A stretch of 62,265 nt of DNA, counting the filler. It is 20 parts of 20 records of this genome, joined end to end, with 100 filler letters (N's around TTAATTAATTAA, not from the genome) between each part and the next. Parts side by side here need not be neighbours in the genome. Positions count along the whole stretch, not along the records: positions 46,222 to 49,058 come from SRR36015645_44700; 19 more parts are not named here. One strand, written 5' to 3'. This document shows, piece by piece, positions 1 through 51,790 of the stretch. The stretch's first letter is position 1, and the number at the start of each line of letters is the position of its first letter. The notes beneath the pieces were generated by a model. The model was not told the origin of the DNA, did no database searches, and saw nothing but the letters and a program-made list of their open reading frames with translations. Both the position numbers and the translations under genes were made by a program.

Positions 1-3000
1 TGCCTTTGTGTAGGATTTCCACCACTCCCATTTGCCATGTCAGTCTGTTTCTATCATTTGCAACTAGCACAACTTCACCCTTCTGTAAAGGGTTCGGGGA
101 ATTTCGCCAAACTTCACCATGCGTTCCTAAAACCTGATATAAATAGTCTCGCACCCACAGATCTTTGAGGCTACTCAACCATTCTTTCCGTTTGTTGAAC
201 TCGTCGGTGATTTTAACCCTCCGATCCTCTTCCCGTTGTGATTCCATAGGTCCTGCAGTGAATCCTTTGCCCATCAACAGGAAATCCTCAGGTGTGAGAG
301 GTAAGGGTAATCCTTCCGGATCGGCACTTTCCCACTGGTATGTGATCGGTCGCTTGTTCACAACTGATTCCACTTCTGCTAGAGCTGTTTCCGTCTGTTC
401 CCAGGTAAGCAGACTTTTCCCTAGTGTCCTTTTTAGGAGTCCCTTTACGGTCTGAATTAACCGTTCCCAGATTCCTCCCCACCATGGGGCACGTTCTACA
501 ATGAACTCCCAGTTGATGTCTAGTCCACAACGTCTGATTCTTTTCGCTAGAGCAACAAAGTTTCCCCCATGATCACTTACGATCTTCTTTGGGTGACCTC
601 TTCTAGCCATGAATCTCTGTAAAGATGCCATGAGGATTTCTTCAGACAATCCGGAGACCAACTCTAAGTGAACTGCGCGGATTGAGAAACATGTGTAGAG
701 TACGAACCACACCTTGGACATATCTTTCAAGTATAGTGGCCCTCCTAGGTCCACTCCTGTCGTTTGGAATGCTGGTGTGAACGTTATTCTATCTTTGGGA
801 AATGGCGGTGTCTGTTCTGATGCTGAAACGGCCATAAATCTTCGGCATCTTCTACAGCTTCGGATGATTGAAGACACTGACTTCTTCGCTCTCACTATCC
901 AATATCCTTTATTCCGTAGCTCTTGTAGTACAGTAGATACTCCTCCATGAGATAGTCCTTCATGCACATACATTATAAATTGGTCGACTATTCCACATCG
1001 ATTCAGAATTATTGGATGCAGTATCCTTTCTGATACATTCAGCTGCTGGAGTCTACCTCCTACTACGATTTGCCCACCGTTATTTAACTGTGGTTGCAAA
1101 CCGGCAATTGAAGACTTTCTTGATATGGGAATATTTCTAGTAAGTGCCTTTAATTCATCTGGATGATTATGCTCTTGGACCAATTTAAATAGCTTTAGTC
1201 TTGCTGTCTCTTCTTCCGCAGGTGTAATGTCTCCCTTGTATTTGTTCTTCCACCGAAGAATCCAACAAATACGTCGTAACGTAATCATCCATCGTGACGA
1301 TCTTTGAGGATTGATGAGCTCGTCCGATATTGGCTTGCACTGATGCATCATACATGCCATTGTACTTGTCGGCGACTCGACTTCTGGTTTTTCAACCCCT
1401 ATTGGTGATTGAAACCCTTCTTGTTGCTGGCCTATAAGACCCTCGAGTGTTGCATGGGGTAGCAATTTAGTCTCAGGAGAGCGCGGCCAATCCTGTTCAG
1501 TTCCACACAACCACGATGGTCCATTCCACCACAACTGGCAATCTTGCAAATCTTTCGCATGTCTGCCTCGTGTTGGTATGTCTGCTGGATTTTCGGCGGT
1601 AGGTATCCATGACCAATTAGACGTGATCCCCAGGATCTCCTCCACTCTATTGGAAACAAAAATACCGTCCACTCCTGGACCTTGCTCAATCCATCCTAAT
1701 ACTGTCATCGAATCAATCCACATGTATATCTCTTCAATTACAATTGTGTCTGCCAACTCCTCCATAATGGATTTTGAGAGTCGTGCACCTATCAATGCAC
1801 CCATGAGTTCCAATCTGGGAATGGACATTTTCTTCATTGGACATAATCTACTTTTAGAAGTCAACAAAGATACGTGTGTGTTCTCTTCGGTCTGCACTCT
1901 CAAATAGGCTACTGCTGCATAGAGTCTTTCAGAGGCGTCTGTGAATACATGCAGTGTGTTCGATGTACCTTCTCCACTCATTTGAGTATGTGTCCAGCGG
2001 TTAATGCTAAGAGCTCTTCCCTCGTTGATATTTTCTAGTATGTCCTCTAGTGCCTTAACTTTGTCTGTAGGCATATGGTCGTCCCACCCAATATCTGCTA
2101 TCCAAAGATCCTGTACAAATATCTTTAGTGGTGCAATAATAGGACTGACCAAACCTAACGGATCATACACTTTGGCCAGCAATGATACTGCTTCTCTTTT
2201 AGTTTTCGTCTTGGATTCGAGTTCCATATTGGCCAATGGCAACAACTTGTCGCAGTCCATGTCCCATGTGATACCTAACACCTTGGTCTGACTTCCAGTA
2301 GCCTCACCAAAAGTGTCTTGTATGTATCGTGAGTTAGACTTTATCTTCCGCATGTTGAAACCTGCTTTCGCCAATAGACTTATGGATTGTTTACAGAAGA
2401 ATTCTGCCATCTCCACATTGTCAAAAGAATTCACCAAATCATCCACATAGATGTTCCTCAACATTTTCTTAGCCGACTGACCCAGCTCTTTTTCCAAGTG
2501 AATCTTGAGAGTGACTAACAGCATATATGGCGACGGTTTAGCTCCAAATATCACTCTAGTCAGACGATAAATCTTGATCTTGCCATCTGGATCCTTCCAC
2601 AAGAAACAGCAGGCATTCCTATCCTCCTCCCTTAGGAAGATTTGTAGAAATGCTTTCTCCAAGTCTCCTAACAGTACTATGAAACCAAGGCGAAATCTTA
2701 ATATGATTCCCCAAGACAATGGCAGTATGTTTGGCCCATTCTCAAGACAGTCGTTGAGAGAATAGCCTCCTTTGGATTTTGCAGCTGCGTCCATTACAAC
2801 TCTCAATTTAGTTGTGTCAGATGTCAGTTTTACAATTCCTCTGTGAGGCAAGTATGATATTGGCTGCGCATCTAAAGGTAGCTCTTCAATGAATCCGTCT
2901 CTTATCTGGGACTGTATATAGTTGTTGTAAGCTTCATATTCCTCCTTGGTTTGTTTGGCTAACAACTTTTCGAGTCGCACTTCACTGACTTCTTTGTTCA

Positions 3001-7746: not shown

Positions 7747-10700
7747 ATGTGGACTGCCTCAAGCATTAACATACGTGGAATCAACAGCAAAGTCAAAGCT
7801 CAGCAATTTCTATGTTACGCTGATATACACAAACCCGACCTCATATTCATACAGGAAACTAATATTGATAATGCATCGTATGACAAGTTTTTCTGGAATG
7901 GCCAAGTGTACACGGCTCAGTTTTTTTCACTACCTCATCGTTTTGCCGGCGTTGGCTATGCAATTCGAAACAGTAGTAACATAAACATATTATCTCATGA
8001 TGAACTAATACCAGGCTACCTCCTTCATGTCAAATTTGAAAAAAGTAACGAAACATACGACGCCTTTAATATACTCATTCCTCAACGAGATGATGAAGCA
8101 CTGCAAGTCATCAATGTACTGAACCAAACCTTAGAGGATATAGATAATGAAAATATATTACTGATGGGAGACTGGAATGTCACTTTAAATCCTACCCTAG
8201 ATAGACACAACAATTGCAATGAGCGCCGAAAATCACTGAAAGATGCGCTGCAGACATTGGCGGCAGAGTTTGGCCTAATAGACATTTGGAGGACAATGCA
8301 CAGACACGTCAAACAATACACTTGGACCGCCTCCAGAAGGGACCAAATACAACAGGCTAGACTTGATAGAATATATGTTACTAGGCAGCTGCGGCAACAG
8401 ATTGTTAAATCATCTATTGACGCATGTACACTATCTGATCACAATTCAGTCTCAATAACATTCCACAACAATCTTCAGAAACATGGAAAGCAATCTTGGA
8501 AATTTAACAATAGCTTGCTAGAGAACAACACGTACTGTCAAATAGTAAATGCTTTTACCCAGGAATGGGACCTTCAAAAAGTAAACTACTCAGATTCTAT
8601 TGATAAATGGTGGGATTCCTATAAGACGCAAATAAAAGCGCTATCGATTAAATTCGGTGTTGATAAAGCAAGGGAGGAAAGAGAGGAGTTGCGAAACCTA
8701 CAAGATGAGGTTAACTCAGACCAGGCTACGGGGAGCACACCAGAGGAATTAAATGAAAAGAAAACAATCCTAAACAATCTTCTCAAGAAGAAGGCATGTG
8801 GTGCAATCACCAGGAGCAAATATAAAGATATTTATGAATCTGATGGCCCCACAAAATACTTCTTTAATATTGGTAAAGAAAAAGCAGCATCAAACAGTAT
8901 AAAATCTTTAAGATTATCCGACACTCATGTCACTGACAATCCAGATGAAATACGGCAGGCCGTAATAAACTTTTATTCCAATCTCTACTCAGATGAGGAA
9001 GTCTCTGAGGAAGCCATAAACGAAATATTACAGGATTTGCCAAGCATAACAGAAGAGGAGCGGGATAGGTTAGAGCAACCTTTCACAAAACATGAGCTAG
9101 ACAAAGCATTAAAAAGTTTTAAGAAAGGTAAAAGTCCTGGCTTAGATGGTTTGACAGTTGAGTGGTATGGCGCCTTCTGGGGTGCTGTAGCAAACAACAT
9201 ACTTGAGCTCTTTCTGTTTATGATAAATAACGAAAAACTGCCGATTTCATTACGAATAGCTATAATTTGCCTGATTTTGAAAAAAATGTGTGACCATACA
9301 GAGTTGAAAAATTATAGGCCTATATCTCTTTTAAATACCGATTACAAAATCTTCACACGTGTGCTTGCCAACAGGTTAAAACCAGTCATGGGCGGTATTG
9401 TACATCAGGACCAAACGTGCTGTATACAAGATAGGAAAATACACGATAATATTAATTTGCTAAGAGATATTATTTTTTACTCGAATAAAACTGATCTGGA
9501 GCTCCTTCTCCTGTCAATAGATCAACAAAAAGCTTTCGACCGTGTAAATCATAAATACATGATTAGAACTTTGGAGAAGTTTGGGTTTGGACCATATTTC
9601 ATAAAATGTATAAAGTTACTATATAATGGCACCCTAAGCTACATTAAGCTTCACGAAGGACTAGTTGGTCCAGTGCGCTTTAATAGAGGGATCAGGCAAG
9701 GAGATTCGCTAAGTATGTTACTATATGTCATAACGATAGAGCCATATCTCGTATTACTTAGAAGAATTCTGCATAATCATGGACTTCAGATACCAGGAAC
9801 CAACAAAAGAATATGTCTCACAGCATATGCAGATGATATTACCCTTATTTTAGAAACAGACTACGCCTTCGACGCTCTGCTATCAGCCTATTCACTTTAC
9901 TCACTAGCATCCGGTGCATTACTCAACAATAAGAAAACTAAAGGCTTATGGCTCGGACAGTGGAAAGGAAGAGTAGACAAACCAAATGAGTTCAAGTGGA
10001 CGTCAGAAGGAATGGAATTTCTGGGGGTCTACTTGGGAAATTCCCAACAAGCAGAGGCAAACAACTTCGATGAAATGAGCGAGAAAATCGAACAAAAGCT
10101 AACTAAGTGGCTTAACATTGGCAAGCCCTTGTCGTATAGGGGGAGAGCTTTAATTGCCAACTCACTAGCAGCTTCAAAGATATGGCACCGGGCCATTAGC
10201 ATGCCTATTCCAGAACAGTTAATAGCACAGTGGCAAACGCAGATAGTGAAATTTGTCTGGAACGGAAAACATTGGCTTACTCCGGCTACTTTATATCAGA
10301 GGAATGATAATGGTGGGCAGTCCTTGTGCAATATCAAGACGAGAATAGATGCCTTTCGTGTTAGCCATATTAAACGGTTTGTAAACAAATTTGATCACCC
10401 CAGCTATGATATGATGTCATTTTTTCTGCGATGCTATGGAAACCTGAATTATGCTGTAGAAATCTTTAAAACAGAAATCGATTTCACACTGTGTGATCAG
10501 CTTCCGTTGTTTTATAGAGAGTTACTGCGAGCTTGGGTCAATTTGGATCTCAATAGAAATTTCTTCCCAACGAACTACACCGACATGATGGGAGAACCCT
10601 TATTCAATAACAACCTCTTTGTTGACATTAACATGAATCCACTTAGCTGCAGGCAAATGACAAGAAATGGCTTTACAAGGATATATGACATTATGTATCA

Positions 10701-10907
10701 GGATGGCCAACGGTTAAAGAGGGCTGATGAGCTTGTGGATATAACCCAGCCACCATTTATCCAAAGGCAAACAAAAATCGAATATGGGAATATATTAAGG
10801 AGTATACAACAAAGCCTGCAGCGGAATAGAGAAAGGAATATCACTCGGCCTGTCGACGAGGCAAGAAGTACATGTGATGAGTTTGTAAATGAACAAAGCA
10901 GCGTAAC
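7747..10907 (+). CDS. Non-LTR retrotransposon ORF2, Tx1/L1-like (APE + RT), 3' truncated
   Basis: SINIRG, IQET, GDWN, ARLDRIY, SDH, KSPGLDG, NYRPISLLNTDYK, DQQKAFDRV, RQGDSLS, YADD. Confidence 0.95.
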
Positions 10908-11168
10908 NNNNNNNNNNNNNNNNNNNNNNNNNNNNNNNNNNNNNNNNNNNNTTAATTAATTAANNNNNNNNNNNNNNNNNNNNNNNNNNNNNNNNNNNNN
11001 NNNNNNNAAACTATTGTGACCCATACTAGTCTGTTCACTGCATGGTGTTTGGTTGACTAACTATATCTTCTTGAGAAAAAGCTTAGTAAGTATTTTTTAT
11101 TATATATAATATCACTGAGCACTCTGTTGATAAATATTACACAATTTCAGCCGTATATTTATTACATT

Positions 11169-13514
11169 ATGGGTAAAGGTAAGCCAAACTATTATTATGT
11201 GACAAAGGGACGAGAACTTGGAATTTTTTTGAATAGTGAGTGGCAACGAGTAGTGTGTAGTGTACAACACACAGACAATTGTTACCAAGGTATGGATACC
11301 ATTGCAGAGTGTGTTCAAATTCTGTTGAATGCAGGAATAAACCCGCTGCAATGCTACCACCATGTAGATATAAGACATGATATTGAATCATGCCTGAACA
11401 CTAACACTCGGCCAAGTAGGAAGCGATCACACACCCAGCGATATAAAGATTTTCTGACTGAGACATGCCACTCAGATGTTGATAACAGTCCAATAGAAGA
11501 AGTCATCACTGAAGTGCTGGATAGTAATTCCAATGCACCAGAAATAGCCAATGATAGCAGCCCAATAAAGGAAAACATAGCCCAAGATGAGGAAGACATA
11601 GCACAAGATGACAATGAAAAATATACATACGTTAAAGAAACGGAAAATGAAAACAACGAGTTTGAAATGGGTGATGCTAAAAGTTTCATCGAAGGTTTAT
11701 TGGAAGCTTGTTACCCTGAACAAGTACTTGCTGAAATCTCAGCACACTCCACAACAATGAGGATGCCACTAGCAGAACTGTCTACATACTCTTCGACTGG
11801 TACCTCAACGAGTACGCCCTCTGCTACAACCGCATCTAATATGTTTTCTGAAGGTGACTTCTCAGCAATGGACAACTTTTCACAGCAGGTAAGCCCTAAA
11901 GGTGGCATCCCTGTGATGGACAGCTATTCAGATGATGCAACAAGCCCAAGAAAGAAGGTATCTCCAAATAAGAAACATAATAGCATTGTTATCCCCACCA
12001 TGGAAAAGGATAACATTAGTATTGTATATGTTCCACAGGAAGTAACAACGTACCCTAAACAGATAGCCTCATCAAACGAGCAACTCAACAACATGGCCCA
12101 GGAAGCAACAACATACCATAAACAGCCAACCTCATCAAACGAGCAACTCAATAACTTGACTACTCCTACAGAGAAAACCGACAACAATGTAAATATACCG
12201 CAAGAAATAACGACCCACCTCAAACAAGTAGCCTGTCCAAATGAAGAATCTGCCAGCAACGCTATCTCTACCAGTGGAAACAACAACAATAACAGTAGTA
12301 AATCCCGGGATAAAAAGAAAAAGAAGGATAGTGACACATATGCCGAATGTGCGACTTGCAAAAGACAAGTGGCGGAAATAAAAAAGTTAAAAATAACAGT
12401 CGAATCGCAAAAAACCGAAATCATTTCACAAAGAGAGCTCAACTGCAGGCAAACTCAGGAAATAACTGAGATGAAAGACCGGCAGTACAAAACAGATGAA
12501 AAGTTTGATTCCATTATGGACAAAATCACGACTCTAGAAGAAATGATGCGTTCACTGATATTTTCTACTGCCCCTGGAAGCATTACTACCATACGTAATG
12601 GGAACAAACATACTACAATGCAGACTCCGGCACTCATGGAAAGTCCAACAACAATCACCCAGAACAACCCATATGAGGTCCTTGCGGAAACCAACAACAC
12701 AAACCTTGCACCGGTATCAGATCATGACACCATTGAGCCAGACCTACCAGCTGCAACACATGTGCAACATGAAAAAAATGACAGTGATCTCAGATGTTCT
12801 GACACCATGCCCGATTTGCAAGAAAACACAACACCAGAAGAGAATGGAAATGGAGATTCTCGCAAAGACAAAGTGCCTGAAGATCAAACTACACGTCAAA
12901 ATAAACGATTAAGAGTGAGAGTTTTTGGCAACTCGATTGTACGTGACTTAGGGTTTAAGGCTGATGAAGAAGTTTACCCTACCACATATCCATTCCCTGG
13001 TGCAAAGGCCCAACATATGAATCTAGAAGGATTTGCTGATGACAACGACGAAACTGATGCAGTACTGCTGCAAACTTTTGGAAATAACCTGTCCGGAAAT
13101 GAAAGAAACTCTGTTGAAGAAACTAAGATAATTATAGACACAATGATTGTAGATACCCAAAGGATATTTCCAACAGCAAAGATACTCCTGTGCAGCATCC
13201 CACCAAGATTAAAAAACAGATTTTTCAACAAAGATAGAAAAGAAATCAATAGTTACCTAGACTGCAAAGCGAAAACCAATGACAGGTTGTGCTTTGTAAA
13301 CAATGAACCCCTATTCAGCAAATTTGATGGTGGTCGAGAAACTCCCAAATTTGACGATGATGAATGGATTGATAAAGACATGTACCAGGGAAAGTCAAGA
13401 GTGCACTTGAGTGGAAAAGGTAAGAAGAAACTTTCTGACAACATGCGGACACATGCCATTGAAGTCAGCAATAGGCTAAATTTTCACAATCAACATATAT
13501 ATGCTCACGGGTAA
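11169..13514 (+). CDS. Non-LTR retrotransposon ORF1: RNase H1 hybrid-binding-like N-terminus, low-complexity linker, coiled coil, SGNH esterase-like C-terminus
   Basis: The first ATG is at 11169 (MGKGKPNYYYVTKGRELGIF). A CATC motif precedes a heptad-rich helix. SGNH-like blocks are VRVFGNSIVR, QTFGNN and SRVHLS. The ORF sits immediately upstream of an APE-RT ORF. Confidence 0.8.
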   Translation: MGKGKPNYYYVTKGRELGIFLNSEWQRVVCSVQHTDNCYQGMDTIAECVQILLNAGINPLQCYHHVDIRHDIESCLNTNTRPSRKRSHTQRYKDFLTETCHSDVDNSPIEEVITEVLDSNSNAPEIANDSSPIKENIAQDEEDIAQDDNEKYTYVKETENENNEFEMGDAKSFIEGLLEACYPEQVLAEISAHSTTMRMPLAELSTYSSTGTSTSTPSATTASNMFSEGDFSAMDNFSQQVSPKGGIPVMDSYSDDATSPRKKVSPNKKHNSIVIPTMEKDNISIVYVPQEVTTYPKQIASSNEQLNNMAQEATTYHKQPTSSNEQLNNLTTPTEKTDNNVNIPQEITTHLKQVACPNEESASNAISTSGNNNNNSSKSRDKKKKKDSDTYAECATCKRQVAEIKKLKITVESQKTEIISQRELNCRQTQEITEMKDRQYKTDEKFDSIMDKITTLEEMMRSLIFSTAPGSITTIRNGNKHTTMQTPALMESPTTITQNNPYEVLAETNNTNLAPVSDHDTIEPDLPAATHVQHEKNDSDLRCSDTMPDLQENTTPEENGNGDSRKDKVPEDQTTRQNKRLRVRVFGNSIVRDLGFKADEEVYPTTYPFPGAKAQHMNLEGFADDNDETDAVLLQTFGNNLSGNERNSVEETKIIIDTMIVDTQRIFPTAKILLCSIPPRLKNRFFNKDRKEINSYLDCKAKTNDRLCFVNNEPLFSKFDGGRETPKFDDDEWIDKDMYQGKSRVHLSGKGKKKLSDNMRTHAIEVSNRLNFHNQHIYAHG
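12036..12250 (+). repeat. Coding tandem repeat in ORF1 (63-bp period; two close copies plus a diverged third)
   Basis: QEVTTYPKQIASSNEQLNN at 12036, QEATTYHKQPTSSNEQLNN at 12099 and QEITTHLKQVACPNEE at about 12201. Confidence 0.85.
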
Positions 13515-43927: not shown

Positions 43928-46121
43928 CCAGCCTCACACATGCCGCTTAGCTGCTTGCTGCAGTGATAGTACTGAGCCTTGTCAGCTGCCGTCCAGACCC
44001 ATTGGTTGACACTGCTGTGACGTAGAGTCTTGCCTATCAGTCCTCCACTTGTCTTAGTATCTCTGTTAATGGTTACCTCTATAGTTTGATCATGTGCAAT
44101 TCTGCTGAATGCATTGTCTTCTGTACGCTGAACTGAGAAGTTGCCTGCTAGAAATTCTGCATCAGCATCTGGATGTGTTTCAGGCAGACGCTTCATCTGC
44201 ATTATGTAGACTGGCAAGTAACGAATGTAGTTAGTACGGTCATAGGCTACAATCCACGGAAGCATTTCCTGCAGGCATTGCAAGTGCATGAGCCAATTCC
44301 CTGTTCTGGTTGAGCGAATGAAGTTGAGCAGCAGTTCGACCATATCAATGAACTCTGACCAAAATTGCGCATTTGGACCACATGACATGGTAAAGCGGAC
44401 AAACTCCTCCTTGAAGCTTGCGAATTCTTCAGAATTAATCAGCTCCTCAGAGGTGGCTCGTGAAAGGTCTTGCCGAAATTGTGATACACGTCCCACTATC
44501 TCCAAGAATGCTGGTAAGCTCTCGCCATCTCTCCACCTCAGATACGCATCCCAACGTAGGCGCCACATAGCTTCAAATACCGTCTTCAGAGCATTGATGG
44601 CACGATTGTAGTGACGGCCATTAAGAACTTGATCAACGCTGCCTTCAGCTACAATACCAGCTTCTACAAAAATGTCACGCAAACCTGCGCTCCCATAACG
44701 ACAGCCAATCACATCAATGAGTTTAAGACCAGTGTGAAATGCTCCCAGTCGTAAAACAATACGCTCAAAGTCACCTTTAAGTCTCGGATTGTTAACTACC
44801 TCTACTGCTTTGGCATATACAGCCTGATCTCCTGTGACTATCACAGATTGTTTGTGTATATCATCTAGAACTGATGCTCCATAGTCTACAGTATCAACCA
44901 CTTCGACTGCATTGGAGAGAGCTGTAAAAACAGTGGCAAGTTCATTAGGTGACTCGTTGATTACTGGCATATACCCAACACTATGCGGAAGACTAACATC
45001 ATCACTGCCCTGTAGTAGCTGGTTAGTACGGCTCCATCCGGGCACCAACTGTGAATACTCTGCATCAGGAGTTGACAAGTCAGGTGTCAGTCGTGCCAGC
45101 AGCCAGGCAGTATCCTGGTCATGTGTATGCTCAAGTGACATAGTAGCAGTTGTTATGAAAAAAGCTGCGTCTTTTACGTGTTCCGGACCACAACGTGAGG
45201 CATAAGGGTAATGGCGAAGACTTTTTTCGACAAATGGCAGAGATCTTTGTTTTTTCACATTCCGAGTCGTCATTTCAATTATTTGACCGCGATTGCTTAA
45301 ACTAGGATTTGCAGTATGTACTTTTGACTGTATGATTATTCCGTTTGTGCAATGAGTTGTGCCGTGCCCCGATGGGGTTTCCTCGCAAAAGTCATTATTG
45401 TCAAAAACAAAAGACACTGGTGCGTGTTTGACAATATTAGCAGGAAGCCTCTCATCTCCTTCCTTCTGCCGTAAATCACCAACAGCTGCTTCTATCTCCT
45501 GTAGTTTACTTAATGAAACTGTATAACCATATCCATTGAGCATTGTCACAAGGTCTGTTCTTCCAGTGACTTTACGGACTGCCATAGCAAGTGAAACGTG
45601 TTTAGGTGTCAGCACCCGGCCCTTCCTGACAGCATATAGGATATCCTGACATATCGCTAAAACTCTTGTCTGCTTGGATGCATCTACATCCGTTTGCTGC
45701 TCTGTATACTGTCCATCACCTGACAGTATCCATGATATCAAATTGAAGAGTATTGGGGGCGTCATTGACATTGCCTTGGAAAATGTACAACACTCTGGGG
45801 TTGGTGGATAATCCATGTTGGCTATATCCTGTAGCTGTTGGTGAATATGTAAAGCAATCATGTATGCGTCATGCATTTTGGACTGTTCATCACAAATCGC
45901 TGAAGTGAGTTCATTTTCTATTTGTTCTTCCTGAAGTGCTACTTTCACAACTTTATAATCATGGACTAACGCCCCGACATCCAAGCCATTTGCGAAGAGA
46001 AGCTGGGGAGCATTCTTTTGGGGTGGGTTATGGAAAACAAGTTAATCCCCGAAGTGTGTAACAAGCTTTTCTTTTAGATGCTTAATCAAGGTTGAATGTA
46101 GTTGTGGATCAATATGATATT
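43928..46121 (-). mobile_element. Academ-like DNA transposon transposase fragment with an in-frame stop at 46042-46044
   Basis: TPKHVSL, FDNNDF.EET.SG.GTTH, GDQAVYAKA, LRLGAFH, HYNRA, YDRTNY.RYL and DQTIE.TINRD.K..GG form the pattern I associate with Academ transposases. Upstream, the same frame reads LKEKLVTHFGD*LVFH. Confidence 0.65.
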
Positions 46122-46301
46122 NNNNNNNNNNNNNNNNNNNNNNNNNNNNNNNNNNNNNNNNNNNNTTAATTAATTAANNNNNNNNNNNNNNNNNNNNNNN
46201 NNNNNNNNNNNNNNNNNNNNNTGGGTGGGATGTATCCTGCTCTTATAAAAAAGTGTATTGATATAAAGCACGGTTTCGGAAATTTTATAGGCATGTAAAT
46301 T

Positions 46302-46985
46302 ATGTCAAGGATTCTCCGTACACGAGTGTCTGTGGACTACAAAACTTTACATAATGGAACTAAAGATGTCTGTCCTGAGCTAAAACAACCGTCTTCGTTA
46401 AAGTGTAAATCATGGCCTAAAAACAAATTATGGAACTGTGAAGTGGTTGACAGGAAAGTTTGTGATGGCAAAGAACAGGTATTGGTGCATTACGTTGGAT
46501 ATTCCAATATATATGACGAGTGGAAACCGTGTCAAGAGATTGTGTGCCGCCCACCATATGTGATGCAAAAAGATGCAAGGGCATTATTTTTGAACCAAAG
46601 CCTAATTAAAATTCAAGAACAATTGTGTGGAGCACGAGGAAGATCCTCACTGAAACAAATTCAGATTCCTGTTCAGATGGATACATACGTAGAAACATTT
46701 GGACAGCTTGCACGTACTCAAGATGTATTTGCTGTGCAATCTTTGGCGGATTTGAGTTGTTTGAACGATATGTTAGTGGAGGACTGGCATTCGAGAGTCC
46801 TAAACAAAAATTTTGATTATGCAGAAATAGTCCCAAACACATTTCAGTTTTGTTTGAAGGAGCGCCGTTGTTTGGAGACCTACGATAAGAGTGGACAAAA
46901 ACAATTAATCCATCGTGGATTCTATTGTTTTTTCAAATTTGTTACGCAATGTGGAAATGGGAGAAATTATATCGAAAACCATTAA
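46302..46985 (+). CDS. 227-aa protein with a chromo-barrel (Tudor-knot-like) domain plus an unknown C-terminal domain
   Basis: WNCEVVDRK...VLVHYVGYSNIYDEWK matches the MRG15/MSL3/Tip60 pattern Y.VHY.G.N...DEW. It is a complete ORF with TATA-like words at about 46244 and 46263. Confidence 0.75.
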   Translation: MSRILRTRVSVDYKTLHNGTKDVCPELKQPSSLKCKSWPKNKLWNCEVVDRKVCDGKEQVLVHYVGYSNIYDEWKPCQEIVCRPPYVMQKDARALFLNQSLIKIQEQLCGARGRSSLKQIQIPVQMDTYVETFGQLARTQDVFAVQSLADLSCLNDMLVEDWHSRVLNKNFDYAEIVPNTFQFCLKERRCLETYDKSGQKQLIHRGFYCFFKFVTQCGNGRNYIENH

Positions 46986-47151
46986 AATAATTATGGAAAC
47001 AAACTTGTAAATACATGTATAGCTAGGCGTATATTGGCCTATAGAGACTGTTAGACTTAAAATGTATGTTACTCACATATAATTCACAATGGACTCAGAC
47101 GTACGTCTGTTGGTAACTGTATATAGCTAGAGGCCTACAATTATATTTAAA

Positions 47152-49058
47152 ATGGCATTTCACACGCTTACATGTAACTGTAAAAAGTTGTTGCTATTGG
47201 CATTGGACGAACTTGAGGACAAAGAGAAAATAACTCACAAATGCAGACAATTAACCCAACCAGATATAATAAAAATTGTTGAAAACTTGTGCGGCAACAA
47301 CAGAATAAACATTGTAGACGTTGATCTTGAAAAATCGGCCGACTCGTTAAAAAGAAAAATTGTTAGTATTTTAAAAGACTTTGTAAAGTATAGAAGTAAA
47401 GGTGGAGCAAATAAAGAACGCTTTCTTAATAAACTGAGTGGTGAAACATACCAAGTTCGGATATATGGTCGGCCATCGCCAGTTAAACGTAGGCTAGATG
47501 AAATAATAAATGACTTGGAAGAACAATGTTCGTCATTGAATAAAAAGTTGCGCACTGCACAGTCCTGTACTGACAAAATCAAAACTAAATATAAGAACTT
47601 GTTGTTATCGAAAAATGGCAGAGGGAAGCAAAAAACAATGACAAGCCCTCGGAAGTTAAGTAAACGTACAAGGCAACGACAGAAGAGAAAGTTAATTGAA
47701 ATGTGTGAAAACTTTGTAGAACTAGCTGCAAAAGAAGTAAACATAGACAAAAAAACTGTTCTCGAAGTGATGAACAAAGTAATATCAGTCGAATCAGAAA
47801 AGAACAATCCCATACTAGATAATACACTAGACGAAATTGATATGTTGTTGTATGTGAAAGAGACATTTAACATCTCAAACAATGCTTTTCACGAACTAGC
47901 AATGTTATGTAAAACTTTACCTCGTTCACATCAGTTGAAGAAAAGAATGAAAGCATTGAACGAAACCTACAATGTGTACTCAATGCCCGAAAACATTATC
48001 GGCGCACAGCAATCAATAAAAGACCGCTTAGAATACAGAGTAAAGATATTGATAGACAATAAAAATGGTACTGAGACTTTCGAGGAGACGAAAACTATTC
48101 GTGTTAAACTATCGGGGGATGGTACAAAAATTGGCAAAAGAAATCATGTTATAAACTTTTCCTTTAGCTTGATTGATGAGCCTTTTAGTGCCAGTGTACG
48201 TGGTAGTCACGTGATAGCAGTGTTCAAGTGTCCTGAACGATATTTAGACTTAAAAGTAGCTCTTAGTGATGTGACACGTGAAGTCAATGAATTGAAAAGT
48301 ATTTCGATATATGACCAGGAATACAAAATAGAATACTTTCTCGGAGGAGACATGAAATTTTTAAATGTAGTAATGGGCATAGATGCATGTAACAGTAATT
48401 ATAGCTGCCTGTGGTGTAAGTGTCATAAGTCAGACAGATGTGATGCGGCTAAAATCTGGTCTATGACTGACACTAATTTCGGTGCCCGCACTGTGGAAGA
48501 AATTGCAACTTTTTCTAAGTTGCCACAAAAATCACAGAAATACAATTGCTCTCACGTGCCTATTTTTGACATACCTGTATACAATGTTGTTCCAGATACA
48601 TTACACTTGTATTTAAGAATCGCTGATCAACTTGTAAAGCAGCTCATTCAAGAAATTGAACGCAGTGACAAAATAAATAAGAAACAAGGTAAAAATACCC
48701 TAATGACCAAGTTCGAGGAGTTTGTACACAGTTTGGGCATAGAATGGGCATTTTTCTGTGACAAAACGTCAAACCTGCTACAGTTTCGTGATTTTACTGG
48801 ACCAGAGCACTTTAAAATTGCTGCCAATATAAAACTTGAAGACTTTCTCCGACCAACACTTGATGTAGCAAACATCAAAAAAATATGGAAAAATTTTCAT
48901 GACTTGATGATTTTGCTTCGTGATAATAATCGTGATTTTGACGAGGAAGCAGTACGTAAGGTAGAGCAGGAGAGCACCAACTTTATAGTGTTGTTTAAAA
49001 GACTCTACATGACCAAAGATATTACTCCATATATGCATGTGCTTGTGTGTCATATTCC
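47152..49058 (+). CDS. RAG1/Transib-like DDE transposase, 3' truncated before the catalytic Glu
   Basis: The motifs are collinear with RAG1: VKLSGDG (cf. VKESCDG, D600), GGDMKFLNVVMG...YSCLWC (cf. GYDEKLVREVEG...YICTLC, D708), PDTLH (cf. IDALH) and ITPYMHVLVCHI (cf. ITNYFHKTLAHV). Confidence 0.75.
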
Positions 49059-49219: not shown

Positions 49220-51790
49220 CTACACTGCTTTTTTCAGGTTTTGTATATGCCACGCTTTCACCTTTTTTCCTTGTTGTATTTTGTACACTAATTCCGATAC
49301 CTTTGACTTGATTCTGAAAGGACCTTGCCATCTAGGTGCTAGTTTAGGTGAAAAGTTCTTCAGACTTGATGATTTGTAAAAAGTTTTGATGTATACTTCA
49401 TCTCCCATATTGAAAGTTGTGTGTTTTCTTTTCTTGTCATACGCTATTTTATTCTTCCTTGACATTGCCTTTAGATGGTTTTTTGTTTCTTCACACAATT
49501 TTGGAAGGTCTTCTACTTTCTCTTCTCTTGTCTTATCATCTCCTGGACCTTTTGTTCGTCGTCCGAACATTAGTTTCACTGGCTCACATTTAGTTGATTC
49601 ATGAACCGCTGTATTGTGGGCAAATTGCTGTTCCGCAATATGAACATCCCACGATCTATGATCTGCTCCTACGGAACTAGTGATCATTGCTCGCAAATCT
49701 CTGTTTAGACGTTCCACCCAATTAGCCTGTGGGTGATATGGCGATAAAAACATCTGCTTTACTCCCCATTTTTCACAAATGGCTTTTACCATCTTCGAAC
49801 GAAAATTTGTGGCGTTATCACTTAATATCTTTCTTGGAGCCCCAAATTTACAGAAAATTTCTCTTGTCAAGATCAAAGCTATCTCCTTGCCGGTGGATGA
49901 TTTCATTGGAAATAGTTGTGCGTATTTAGAAAAATAATCTTCCAATACCAGTAGGAACCTGTTTCCAGCATGACTTGTTGGGTAGGGGCCTAGAAAATCA
50001 TATGCTATCATATCCCATACTCCTTCTGGTTCGTATGTCCCCATCTTCCCTGGCATCTTCGTATATCTTGGTTTTGTTTGCTGACATGTCTGGCATGCCC
50101 GAACGTAATCTCTGATGTAACGATTTATTCCTGTGAACCAGAAATGACTTTTCACCCTAAGTATGGTTTTTTTCCTTCCTAAATGGCCTGCGGTATGTAG
50201 ATTGTGCTTGCTGTACAACACTGCCTTCCTTAATGATTGTGGTACGACCACTAATGTTAATCCATTATGTTTGATGCATAACAATTTATTCACAATGCAG
50301 TAACTGTCTCTAGTTCTCCAAACTCTTCTGCCATATTTCTCCTCCGTCGCTTCTGTGTCCTGTAAGCACTTTGTTACCGGACCTGTAAATGTGTCTTCCT
50401 CTTGTTCTTTTACAAAATCCTCTACTGATATGGTGGTCAAGTCGTCAATTATGTGTTTTTCTCCCTCCTGTTTTCCTTTACAATTACCACAGAGAAAATC
50501 CCCCATCTCTTCTGCTTCTGCATTTGATAACCCAATACACTTGGAGTGGTACCATCCATCGCACCCATCGCATTGTATCCAGTTTTGTACATCATCTTTA
50601 TCATTCTCTACCTTACACGGTAATGCCGCACATTCATCATCATACACTTGTAAAGCATTTACTCGTCTGTTTTCCAAATATTGTGTGTTCCTTGACAGGG
50701 CGTCGGCTACCGTGTTGAGTTTTCCTGGATAATAGTGAACTGTAAAATCAAAATCTTGCACCCTTAAGATCCATCTTGCTTGCCTCGCTGAAATTCTAGT
50801 TTTTGTAAATAGGTGACATAATGCTTGATGATCTGTGAAAACCTCATTTGAATGTCCTTCCAGAAAATTTCTCCATTTTTCCAGCGACCATATAATGGCT
50901 AAACACTCCCTTTCCGTGGCGCTGTAGTTTCGTTCTGCTCCATTTAATGACCGGCTCCCAAACTCCACAATTCTAAGTGTCTTTTCTTGCCCTTGTGTAA
51001 GGATAGCCCCTAACCCTATTTCACTTGCATCTGTGTATATCCTGAATGGTTTGTTGTGATCTGGGTATCCCAGTACCTCTGGGCTGAGCAAAGCCATCTT
51101 TAGCTTCGTAAAACTGTCCTGGCATTCTTCCGACCATTTCCATCGGACTCCTTTTCTTTTCAGATTGTGCAGCGGTCCCGAAATAGTTGCCAGATCCGGA
51201 ATAAACTTGCCAAACCAATTGATCATTCCCATGAACCGCTCCAGCTCTTTGATGTTCCGTGGTCTTGGAAACTCCTGGATTGTTTGTACCTTTCTTGGAT
51301 CTACTTCAATTCCATTGCTTGTAATGATATGACCCAGATATTTTATCTTTGAAAAGCAAAAGTGGCTCTTCTTTGGTGATACCGTCAGATTTGCTTTACG
51401 TAATAATGCCAATACTGTCTCTACATGCATTAAATGTTCATTGATAGATTTTGAAAATACCACAATGTCATCTAAGTAGACGTAACAAAACTTGCCTATG
51501 ACCGGCTGTAGAACTATTTCCATTAATCTAAAAAAACTCGCGGGGCCATTGGCAAGACCCAGTGGTAATACCGAGTATTCAAATAAACCTTCATTACAGA
51601 TAAACGCTGTTTTTTCTGCATCTTTATCCTCTATCTCCATTTGGTGATAGCCGAACTTCATGTCCAAACAAGAAAAAACTACCACCCCATAAAATGATCC
51701 AACTATGCTGTCAATCGTCCTTATTGGGTATGCATCCTTCTTCGTTATTTTGTTTAATTTTCTGTAGTCTACAGTTTTCCTAAACGTATC
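49220..51790 (-). mobile_element. pol: Ty3/Gypsy pol (RT, RNase H, inserted PHD finger, complete integrase), 5' truncated
   Basis: VDYRKLN, LPLGL, YLDD, YTDAS and TDHQAL. PHD C..C...WIQCDGCDGWYHSKC...FLCGNC. Integrase H..GH...CQTC, DFLGP, SDNA, YHPQAN..ER.N and WQGPF. Confidence 0.95.

Follow-up and report, generated by a model that had tools for sequence, protein, structure and literature searches.

A candidate two-gene transposon family pairing a RAG1-fold transposase with a small accessory protein

The closest described systems to the element considered here are the RAG-like transposons (RAGL, or ProtoRAG) and the Transib and Chapaev elements of the CMC-Transib (CMCT) group. RAGL elements have 5'-CAC termini, a 5-bp duplication and a kelch-type RAG2L (PMC7204232), Transib elements have a single gene, a CACAATG-like heptamer and 5-bp duplications (PMC1131882; PMC7204232), and the CMCT group has 5'-CA..TG-3' termini and 2-5 bp duplications, with C(2)C and H(3-4)H motifs shared by all members (Kojima 2025, PMC12730594). 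Chapaev elements have CAC..GTG termini, 3-4 bp duplications and an N-terminal Chapa zinc finger (PMC4079192; PMC4411706; preprint 10.64898/2026.01.24.700457). The stretch of DNA analysed here (the window, positions 1-62265; 62,265 nucleotides) consists of 20 joined contigs of 2-6 kb with N44-TTAATTAATTAA-N44 between each. A single contig (46222-49058; 2837 bp, GC ~0.34-0.36) carries a transposase gene and ORF1, which encodes a small protein referred to below as the partner. An earlier note on the window had described the two as a unit of a chromo-barrel protein and a RAG1/Transib-like transposase. The analysis presented here places the probability that the window holds a member of a genuine two-gene family of RAG1-fold transposons at roughly 85%, and the contig is very probably a 3'-truncated piece of such a cut-and-paste DNA transposon. 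The unit resembles a RAGL transposon in design and fails membership of RAGL, Transib and Chapaev by the hallmarks that are testable here.

The transposase and its fold

The transposase frame opens at 47152 on the plus strand, 166 nt downstream of ORF1 and co-oriented with it, as the earlier note had read it, and remains open to the contig end at 49058, so that the gene is 3'-truncated and encodes 635 aa compared with 725-795 aa in full-length homologues. The window copy is short of the last ~110 residues, and with them of the third catalytic residue, an E, as well as a CCHC-like knuckle at the C-terminus. The motifs on which the likeness to RAG1 had been based, four in the earlier count, are all present and are conserved across homologues, so they are not due to chance: SGDG (residues 321-324), GGDMK (398-402) followed by CLWC (419-422), PDTLH (481-485) and TPYMH....H (625-634). 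The codons of the key residues, all on the plus strand, lie at 48118-48120 (D323), 48349-48351 (D400), 48406-48408 (C419), 48415-48417 (C422), 49036-49038 (H629) and 49051-49053 (H634). D323, D400, C419 and C422 are invariant in two alignments, of 26 and 75 sequences; H485 is invariant in the smaller alignment and at least 90% conserved in the larger one, and conservation among homologues is 90% or more at H629 and H634. A Q..E..N motif, at least 90% conserved in the full-length homologues of the 26-sequence alignment, follows 20 residues past HxxxxH, and the conserved E beyond HxxxxH lines up with the RAG1 E in the profile alignment.

Taken alone, the 635-aa product gave three weak matches far under the cut-offs in Pfam at E up to 1, and no relative in the PDB by single-sequence search. 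A word-indexed search returned 64 matches, the best full-length ones being the homologues of 725-795 aa, and four of the homologues carry echinoderm names (Holothuria, Lytechinus, Anneissia, Apostichopus). An exhaustive search recovered 2372 cluster representatives at E up to 1e-3; a cluster look-up gave no names for the homologues of NCBI source. Profiles built from the homologues reach RAG1 in the PDB, with E 5.7e-5 for RAG1 chains using the 26-sequence profile, and 4.8e-8 for RAG1 and 1.4e-4 for amphioxus RAG1L using the 75-sequence profile. The profile aligns GGDxKF..CxWC and TPYMHxxxxH..E with the matching segments of RAG1, which presumably contain RAG1 residues D708, C727/C730, H937/H942 and E962. 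The Pfam RAG1 family was touched by one of the 26 members (E 2.7e-4).

An AlphaFold2 model of the transposase, built with an alignment, is of high confidence (pLDDT 87.5). The Foldseek matches listed down to rank 49 are all to RAG1 (best 2.3e-13), the amphioxus protein BbRAG1L (2.7e-9) and HzTransib (9.3e-7), and the next match after them is Hermes at 1.6e-2. VIA-align superposes model residues 224-635 onto mouse RAG1 459-943 with Z 23.5 and an rmsd of 4.0 over 387 aligned residues; the Z scores are 19.4 for BbRAG1L, 18.6 for HzTransib, 9.9 for the P element and 6.5 for Hermes. The alignment starts at model residues 218-228 in 33 of the 35 RAG1, RAG1L and Transib matches listed, and at 159-165 in the remaining two, whose rmsd is 8.8-14.5. 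The predicted structure thus establishes that the transposase has the RAG1 fold, the catalytic core corresponding to residues 222-635 (47815-49058, plus strand; model, Foldseek, VIA-align and profile), where it is ended by the contig edge immediately past HxxxxH. Residues 1-221 (47152-47814, plus strand) form a helical or coiled-coil region by the secondary structure of the model, to which nothing in RAG1 corresponds. Gene 1 encodes a transposase of the DDE class that has the RAG1/Transib fold and comes from a large lineage. The DDE core is represented by D323 and D400, with the E past the contig end and conserved in homologues, and both zinc motifs of the CMCT group, C(2)C and H(4)H, are present. 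Comparison was made with PDB structures, and the transposase could be placed in no named lineage.

No Cys or His before residue 247 is invariant or nearly so in either alignment, and for the 26 transposases no RING or zinc-finger family stands among the 25 of 80 Pfam families listed, C-terminal knuckles aside. No chromo or Royal domain fused to the transposase was found in a Pfam scan of ten longer homologues. Many full-length homologues (P0002, P0003, P0016-P0021, P0028 and others) start with a hydrophobic stretch resembling a signal peptide, which is odd for a nuclear enzyme and may be a gene-model artefact or a real feature; the window copy does not have this stretch.

Pairing of the two genes in related elements

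The earlier note had proposed a tBLASTn search for conserved linkage of the two ORFs, and homologues of the two do co-occur. The sample consisted of 79 metagenome loci that encode relatives of the transposase, and the queries were ORF1 and two of its first-found relatives. A partner homologue was found by tblastn in 52 of the 79 loci (E down to 5e-19), and a profile search added one locus (L001), bringing the count to 53. The partner lies directly downstream of the transposase on the opposite strand in 52 of these 53 loci, so that the two genes are convergent, tail to tail, and the co-oriented layout of the window, which had been taken as the unit's own, is not typical of the family. The suggestion that the two ORFs might be spliced into one protein is rejected for the family because in the relatives the partner is read from the opposite strand and has a start and a stop of its own. 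Where at least 1100 nt of downstream room is available, the partner is present in 48 of 56 loci, or 13 of 19 sequence clusters (at least 80% nucleotide identity; 26 clusters overall). Many related elements from marine animals have retained this pairing of transposase and partner.

A quick maximum-likelihood tree of 31 transposases was midpoint-rooted for drawing only and drawn without L066 and L069, whose frames are too broken. The window sequence, all 12 partner-bearing loci in the tree and the four echinoderm proteins form one clade of 22 rows with an SH-aLRT value of 100. Three of the four partner-less loci in the tree fall in the other clade (9 rows), and the fourth, L077, is on a long branch. 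A second transposase clade of 780-850 aa (L044, L068, L079, P0059, P0124, P0162 and P0172) shows no partner gene in those of its loci that have room. In some of its members a weak C-terminal SAP-like or Ish1-like motif replaces the CCHC knuckle; SAP matches were obtained for L044 (E 1.6e-4), P0170 (7.5e-4) and P0145 (1.7e-3).

Transposase and partner co-diverge: across 10 elements their pairwise identities give a Mantel r of 0.84, a value reached by none of 5000 permutations. The partner is under purifying selection, with dN/dS (calculated with the analysts' own Nei-Gojobori script) of 0.10 at dS 1.30 for the pair L028-L076 and 0.18 at dS 0.51 for L031-L072; the transposase gives 0.107 at dS 1.11 for L028-L076. 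No estimate was obtained from the other three partner pairs or from one of the three transposase pairs, all of which were saturated. A complex prediction for the intact L021 pair, run without alignments and with an uncertain partner fold, scored 0.00 and gives no verdict.

Evidence for recent mobility comes from one assembly in which two families of near-identical copies lie in differing flanks. Group A (the L013 element, 9105-12911 of that locus, 3807 bp) has copies 99.0-99.9% identical, and group B (the L021 element, 8819-12613, 3795 bp) has copies 95-99.6% identical. The similarity between copies ends at inverted termini of 12-15 nt, 5'-CATGTCAAAAA... in group A and 5'-CATATCAAAACC...GGTTTTGATATG-3' in group B, the right end of which reads GATATG. 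Both elements contain an intact transposase of 673 aa (A) or 651 aa (B), and ~145 nt past its stop an intact convergent partner of 229 aa (A) or 256 aa (B), the partner ATG of the relatives lying 93-105 nt from the nearer terminus. Whether the partner gene belongs inside the element, a point raised in the earlier note, is therefore answered in the affirmative for two multi-copy relative families. The 3' terminal repeat of one group-B copy (L035, 12548-13109) is interrupted by an insertion of ~560 bp, which may be a small non-autonomous element. In L004 an inverted-repeat search gave no convincing termini.

The ends of the relatives read CAT...ATG. Matching flanks of 4-8 nt occur at none of 17 insertions of the two families (two of which share one left flank), and the 5-bp target duplication that is a hallmark of Transib is likewise found at none of the 17. 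A match of 1 nt beside each end is present at 14 of the 17 insertions, compared with a mean of 5.7 after shuffling; none of 20000 shuffles reached 14.

These features distinguish the family from the systems described above. Like RAGL and ProtoRAG, it combines a transposase core of RAG1 fold (Z 19.4 to BbRAG1L, 23.5 to RAG1) with a smaller second gene that in the relatives lies just downstream, convergent and inside the inverted repeats (upstream and co-oriented in the window copy). A further likeness is a possible chromatin-reader module in the partner, missing from some lineages. Unlike RAGL, its partner has no kelch propeller with a PHD finger, its transposase has no N-terminal zinc-finger or RING region, and its termini are CAT, with no 5-bp target duplication. 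With Transib (HzTransib) it shares the catalytic fold (Z 18.6), the D, D, C(2)C, H(4)H, E layout and a similar size, but it has two genes, CAT termini and a 1-nt duplication. The ends of the relatives fit the general 5'-CA..TG-3' rule of Chapaev, CMC and the wider CMCT group, whereas the 1-nt duplication falls outside the stated range of 2-5 bp. In contrast to Chapaev, the relatives have neither CAC..GTG termini nor a 3-4-bp duplication, and they have no Chapa zinc finger, as judged by the absent conserved N-terminal Cys/His cluster alone. Fungal CMCT members resemble the family in carrying accessory genes of epigenetic function (TET/JBP), but here the accessory gene encodes a Royal-domain protein.

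The termini and the 1-nt duplication are a reason against assignment to a named lineage and no proof of a new superfamily, because a 2026 preprint argues for lability within Transib, whose duplications and termini it reports as able to vary (5 bp, 3 bp or TA). Literature searches turned up no account of a two-gene element that resembles Transib or RAG1 and has a partner of chromo, Tudor or MBT type, and Repbase or Dfam may have a name for the family. The name 'Lanisha' was met in the literature only in a moss genome paper and in Kojima 2025, within the accessible text of these.

The partner protein and its possible roles

ORF1 (46302-46985, plus strand, stop included) is a complete ORF of 227 aa with its own start and stop, as first described, and an in-frame TAA stands two codons upstream of its ATG. 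The motif VLVHYVGYSNIYDEW, from which a chromo barrel had been proposed, is present at residues 60-74. That proposal stands in part. A barrel of the Royal family at residues ~36-83 (46407-46550, plus strand; Pfam, PDB and family profile) is solid by the family profile, but the match of the single sequence is weak, and within the Royal family it stands closest to MBT, chromo-barrel and Tudor domains rather than to the classical chromodomain. ORF1 alone matches the Pfam family Chromo at residues 48-83 (E 1.2e-3, 19.1 bits against a cut-off of 25.1) and Tudor-knot at residues 36-80 (E 3.1e-3, below cut-off), and its barrel matches the ARID4A and MOF chromo barrels in the PDB. The profile of the partner family reaches the MBT repeats of L3MBTL3 (E 1.1e-8) and L3MBTL1 (~1e-6), then MRG15 (1.6e-4) and ARID4A (2.8e-4), and also MOF, PHF20 and SAWADEE; all of its PDB matches are to Royal-family proteins and are confined to the barrel. 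Of 13 aligned partners of 200-284 aa, five match MBT in Pfam, four Tudor-knot, three SAWADEE and two Chromo, every one of these matches lying under the cut-off or close to it; at E up to 1 Pfam also names MSL3_chromo-like, DUF4166, DUF2067 and SMN_Tudor. No kelch or PHD match was obtained in that scan of the 13 partners at E up to 1. The nearest ESM Atlas clusters are MRG/MSL3 chromodomain for ORF1 (0.85) and for P0210 (0.78), both of which are under 0.9 and serve as leads only. A single-sequence AlphaFold2 model of ORF1 (pLDDT 35.6) was unusable.

The barrel is present in 11 of the 13 aligned partners with the signature LY.vE...KiHYvGYs..yDEWrp. Its aromatic positions in ORF1 are W44, Y64, Y67, Y71 and W74. 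In the profile alignment the aromatic positions of the partners (hYvGys..yDEW) line up with HFDGW..YDYW of MBT, and the aligned positions are Y, F, W or H in 11 of the 13. We take the aromatic positions of HFDGW..YDYW to be the methyl-lysine cage of MBT and chromo barrels. The partners of L012 and L013 do not have the barrel and retain the C-terminal domain. This domain of ~130 aa is common to all 13 partners and occupies ORF1 residues ~95-227 (46584-46982, plus strand; alignment of the 13 partners). It follows the pattern IK..L..GRK.dP...W..R..N.NGDFaYV..GT..F...F.FVrGdG, in which L108, T180 and F213 are invariant and I104, G134, W162, R165, N168, D172 and F211 at least 90% conserved. Nothing in the PDB or Pfam matched it, and the earlier description of an uncharacterised C-terminal domain thus holds for a conserved region without a match. 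The idea that it is a second barrel was ruled out by hhalign, which gave a probability of 0.1% for the N-terminal against the C-terminal domain.

A word-index search with ORF1 alone gave no match. ORF1 reaches the related loci by tblastn down to E 5e-19 over residues 22-223 and by phmmer at 1e-18, and the family profile later found 18 database homologues, none with a name beyond 'hypothetical protein'. On its sequence, ORF1 belongs to a conserved family of element-encoded proteins with a putative accessory role.

By analogy with its fold, the transposase would excise and integrate the element by DDE chemistry of the RAG/Transib type, and the partner would work together with it. The conservation of the C-terminal domain suggests that this domain may carry the core function of the partner, contacting the transposase or the element ends. 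From homology we infer chromatin reading and binding by the partner: the barrel would read a methyl-lysine mark, and so tether or license transposition on particular chromatin. The transposon may have acquired such a partner independently, as the earlier note suggested. The PHD finger of RAG2 lies outside the RAG2 core, and the role of the partner may parallel that of the RAG2 core with its dispensable PHD finger. Chromatin-tethered integration is known from the chromodomain of chromoviral integrases and from the PWWP domain of LEDGF, which acts with the lentiviral integrase. The family is like these in joining a Royal-family reader to a DDE integrase or transposase and possibly in choosing chromatin, and unlike them in that their reader is either part of the integrase itself or supplied by the host, whereas here the candidate reader has a separate gene encoded by a DNA transposon. 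A specific role of the partner as a chromatin-reading cofactor is held tentatively, at somewhat under even odds.

Two other roles have to be weighed. The partner may be an end-binding or import adaptor instead of a chromatin reader, comparable to the Myb-like protein of PIF/Harbinger or TnpA of En/Spm, with the C-terminal domain binding subterminal DNA or the transposase and the barrel binding nucleic acid. En/Spm is a system that needs two element-encoded proteins. Such an adaptor would account for the finding that the C-terminal domain, and not the barrel, is common to all 13 aligned partners and that the L013 element is mobile without a barrel, from which it follows that the barrel is not needed for mobility in L013. 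It would also agree with the inclusion of Tudor-knot, described in Pfam as an RNA-binding knot of the chromodomain, among the best Pfam barrel matches, and with the position of En/Spm in the same CMCT group (PMC12730594). No DNA-binding family was matched by the partners, however, either in the PDB profile search or in Pfam for the 13 partners, and the aromatic residues of the candidate methyl-lysine cage are retained in most of them. The adaptor role is considered rather unlikely.

A counter-silencing factor is very unlikely. In this role the partner would be a competitor of Royal-domain repressors of the host (MBT or HP1-like), or would shield the element's chromatin in some other way, without being involved in transposition itself. 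In favour of it, the barrel has its strongest profile matches among the MBT repeats of L3MBTL proteins, and fungal CMCT members repeatedly carry TET/JBP dioxygenase genes, accessory genes that act on epigenetic marks (PMC12730594). Against it, the tight co-divergence of partner and transposase (r 0.84) and selection as strong as that on the transposase are at least as fitting for a co-worker of the transposase.

The two-gene family bears on the origin of V(D)J recombination, in which the dependence of RAG1 on RAG2 is an open point. Both the loss of a partner by Transib and the gain of one by RAGL are stated as models by Martin et al. 2020 (PMC7204232). A large and apparently still mobile family would provide an independent natural case of a RAG1-fold transposase with a different convergent partner, and would allow tests of whether a partner is a general requirement of the enzyme fold, what the partner contacts, and whether chromatin reading is a recurrent solution. 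The intact near-identical copies of the L021 and L013 types are material for direct assays, and the CAT termini with a 1-nt duplication widen the known end and target geometry of the group. A broader proposal, which is unlikely, is that the convergent design of a RAG1-fold transposase and a small chromatin-reading accessory protein is older or more general than the RAG1-RAG2 pair, with a large sister lineage in invertebrates. If it were true, a Royal-domain protein of new fold would fill the accessory slot in place of a kelch-PHD protein, the partner would be the functional counterpart of RAG2 in being required for or licensing DNA cleavage, the RAG/Transib radiation would descend from a two-gene ancestor whose partners could be exchanged, and integration in the lineage would involve a 1-nt stagger, which lies beyond the reported range of the group.

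The window copy and its surroundings

Several observations weigh against the reading of the contig as a member of a genuine two-gene family. Even by profile, the partner is missing from 8 of the 56 loci with room (L044, L049, L060, L066, L068, L069, L077 and L079) and from 6 of the 19 clusters, and neither L012 nor the mobile group-A element L013 has the barrel. The RAG1 match has no power to separate the Transib branch from the CMC branch because the only solved structures in the CMCT group are those of RAG1, RAG1L and Transib (PMC12730594). The termini of the window copy are off the contig, so containment of the partner is seen in the relatives alone. The order in the window, in which a spacer of 166 nt (46986-47151, plus strand) separates an upstream, co-oriented partner from the transposase, is unlike that of 52 of the 53 relatives. 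The only other 'upstream' case, L061 (1-2420), is an inverted truncated copy abutting a second one: a partner at 85-540 (plus strand) and the remnant of a transposase C-terminus at 737-1043 (minus strand) are followed by a second transposase copy from ~1035 (plus strand). This composite shows that elements land beside or within each other, and the adjacency of the two genes in the window could itself have arisen where two copies meet or through chimeric assembly.

For the window copy, it is possible, though doubtful, that the adjacency is secondary, with ORF1 derived from a neighbouring inverted or truncated copy or with the contig being chimeric; the co-oriented unit as drawn would then be non-functional, and the pairing at the level of the family would still hold. 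The convergent order of nearly all relatives and the composite nature of L061 favour such an origin, as do a short contig cut at both sides and a single public run with an identical piece of only 197 nt within ORF1. Against it, both ORFs are intact, the spacer is too short for the remnant of a second transposase and contains no terminus-like repeat, and the CACAATG in it is at chance level. The intact state of both ORFs fits a young copy. A lineage-specific inversion, a two-copy junction and an assembly chimera are alternatives between which the contig cannot tell.

No element terminus was identified in the 80 nt that precede the ORF1 ATG on the contig (46222-46301, plus strand), and a repeat search of the whole fragment 46222-49058 found no terminus-like repeat. 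Since the partner ATG of the relatives lies 93-105 nt from a terminus, the nearest terminus would fall just off the contig. The CACAATG at 47085-47091 was rejected as a Transib end because the heptamer occurs 10 times in the window against 14.8 expected. The spacer also contains a perfect 14-nt palindrome, CAGACGTACGTCTG, at 47096-47109, 43 nt upstream of the transposase start codon, and downstream of it a TATATAG at 47120-47126, which may be a regulatory site.

The only public match found for the fragment is a contig of 197 nt, identical to 46479-46675 within ORF1, from a run that bears the label marine sediment metagenome. Among the sequencing-run matches this ORF1 piece came from one DNA run and RNA data for the fragment did not appear, and the viral contigs searched contained no relative of its genes.

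Because the window is a concatenation of contigs, adjoining fragments give no genomic context for one another; those beside 46222-49058 are unrelated mobile elements, and the outside context is therefore uninformative on the two-gene unit. The previous fragment contains a frame of ~650 aa at 43928-45876 (minus strand), open into the spacer, which has an SGDG-like motif and matches no Pfam family at E up to 1e-3; it may be an unclassified transposase. The next fragment encodes a Pol of Ty3/gypsy type at 49220-51661 (minus strand) with reverse transcriptase, RNase H and integrase, and a PHD finger lies between RNase H and integrase (Pfam E 5e-7, over the cut-off), making it a second mobile element with a possible chromatin-reader module.

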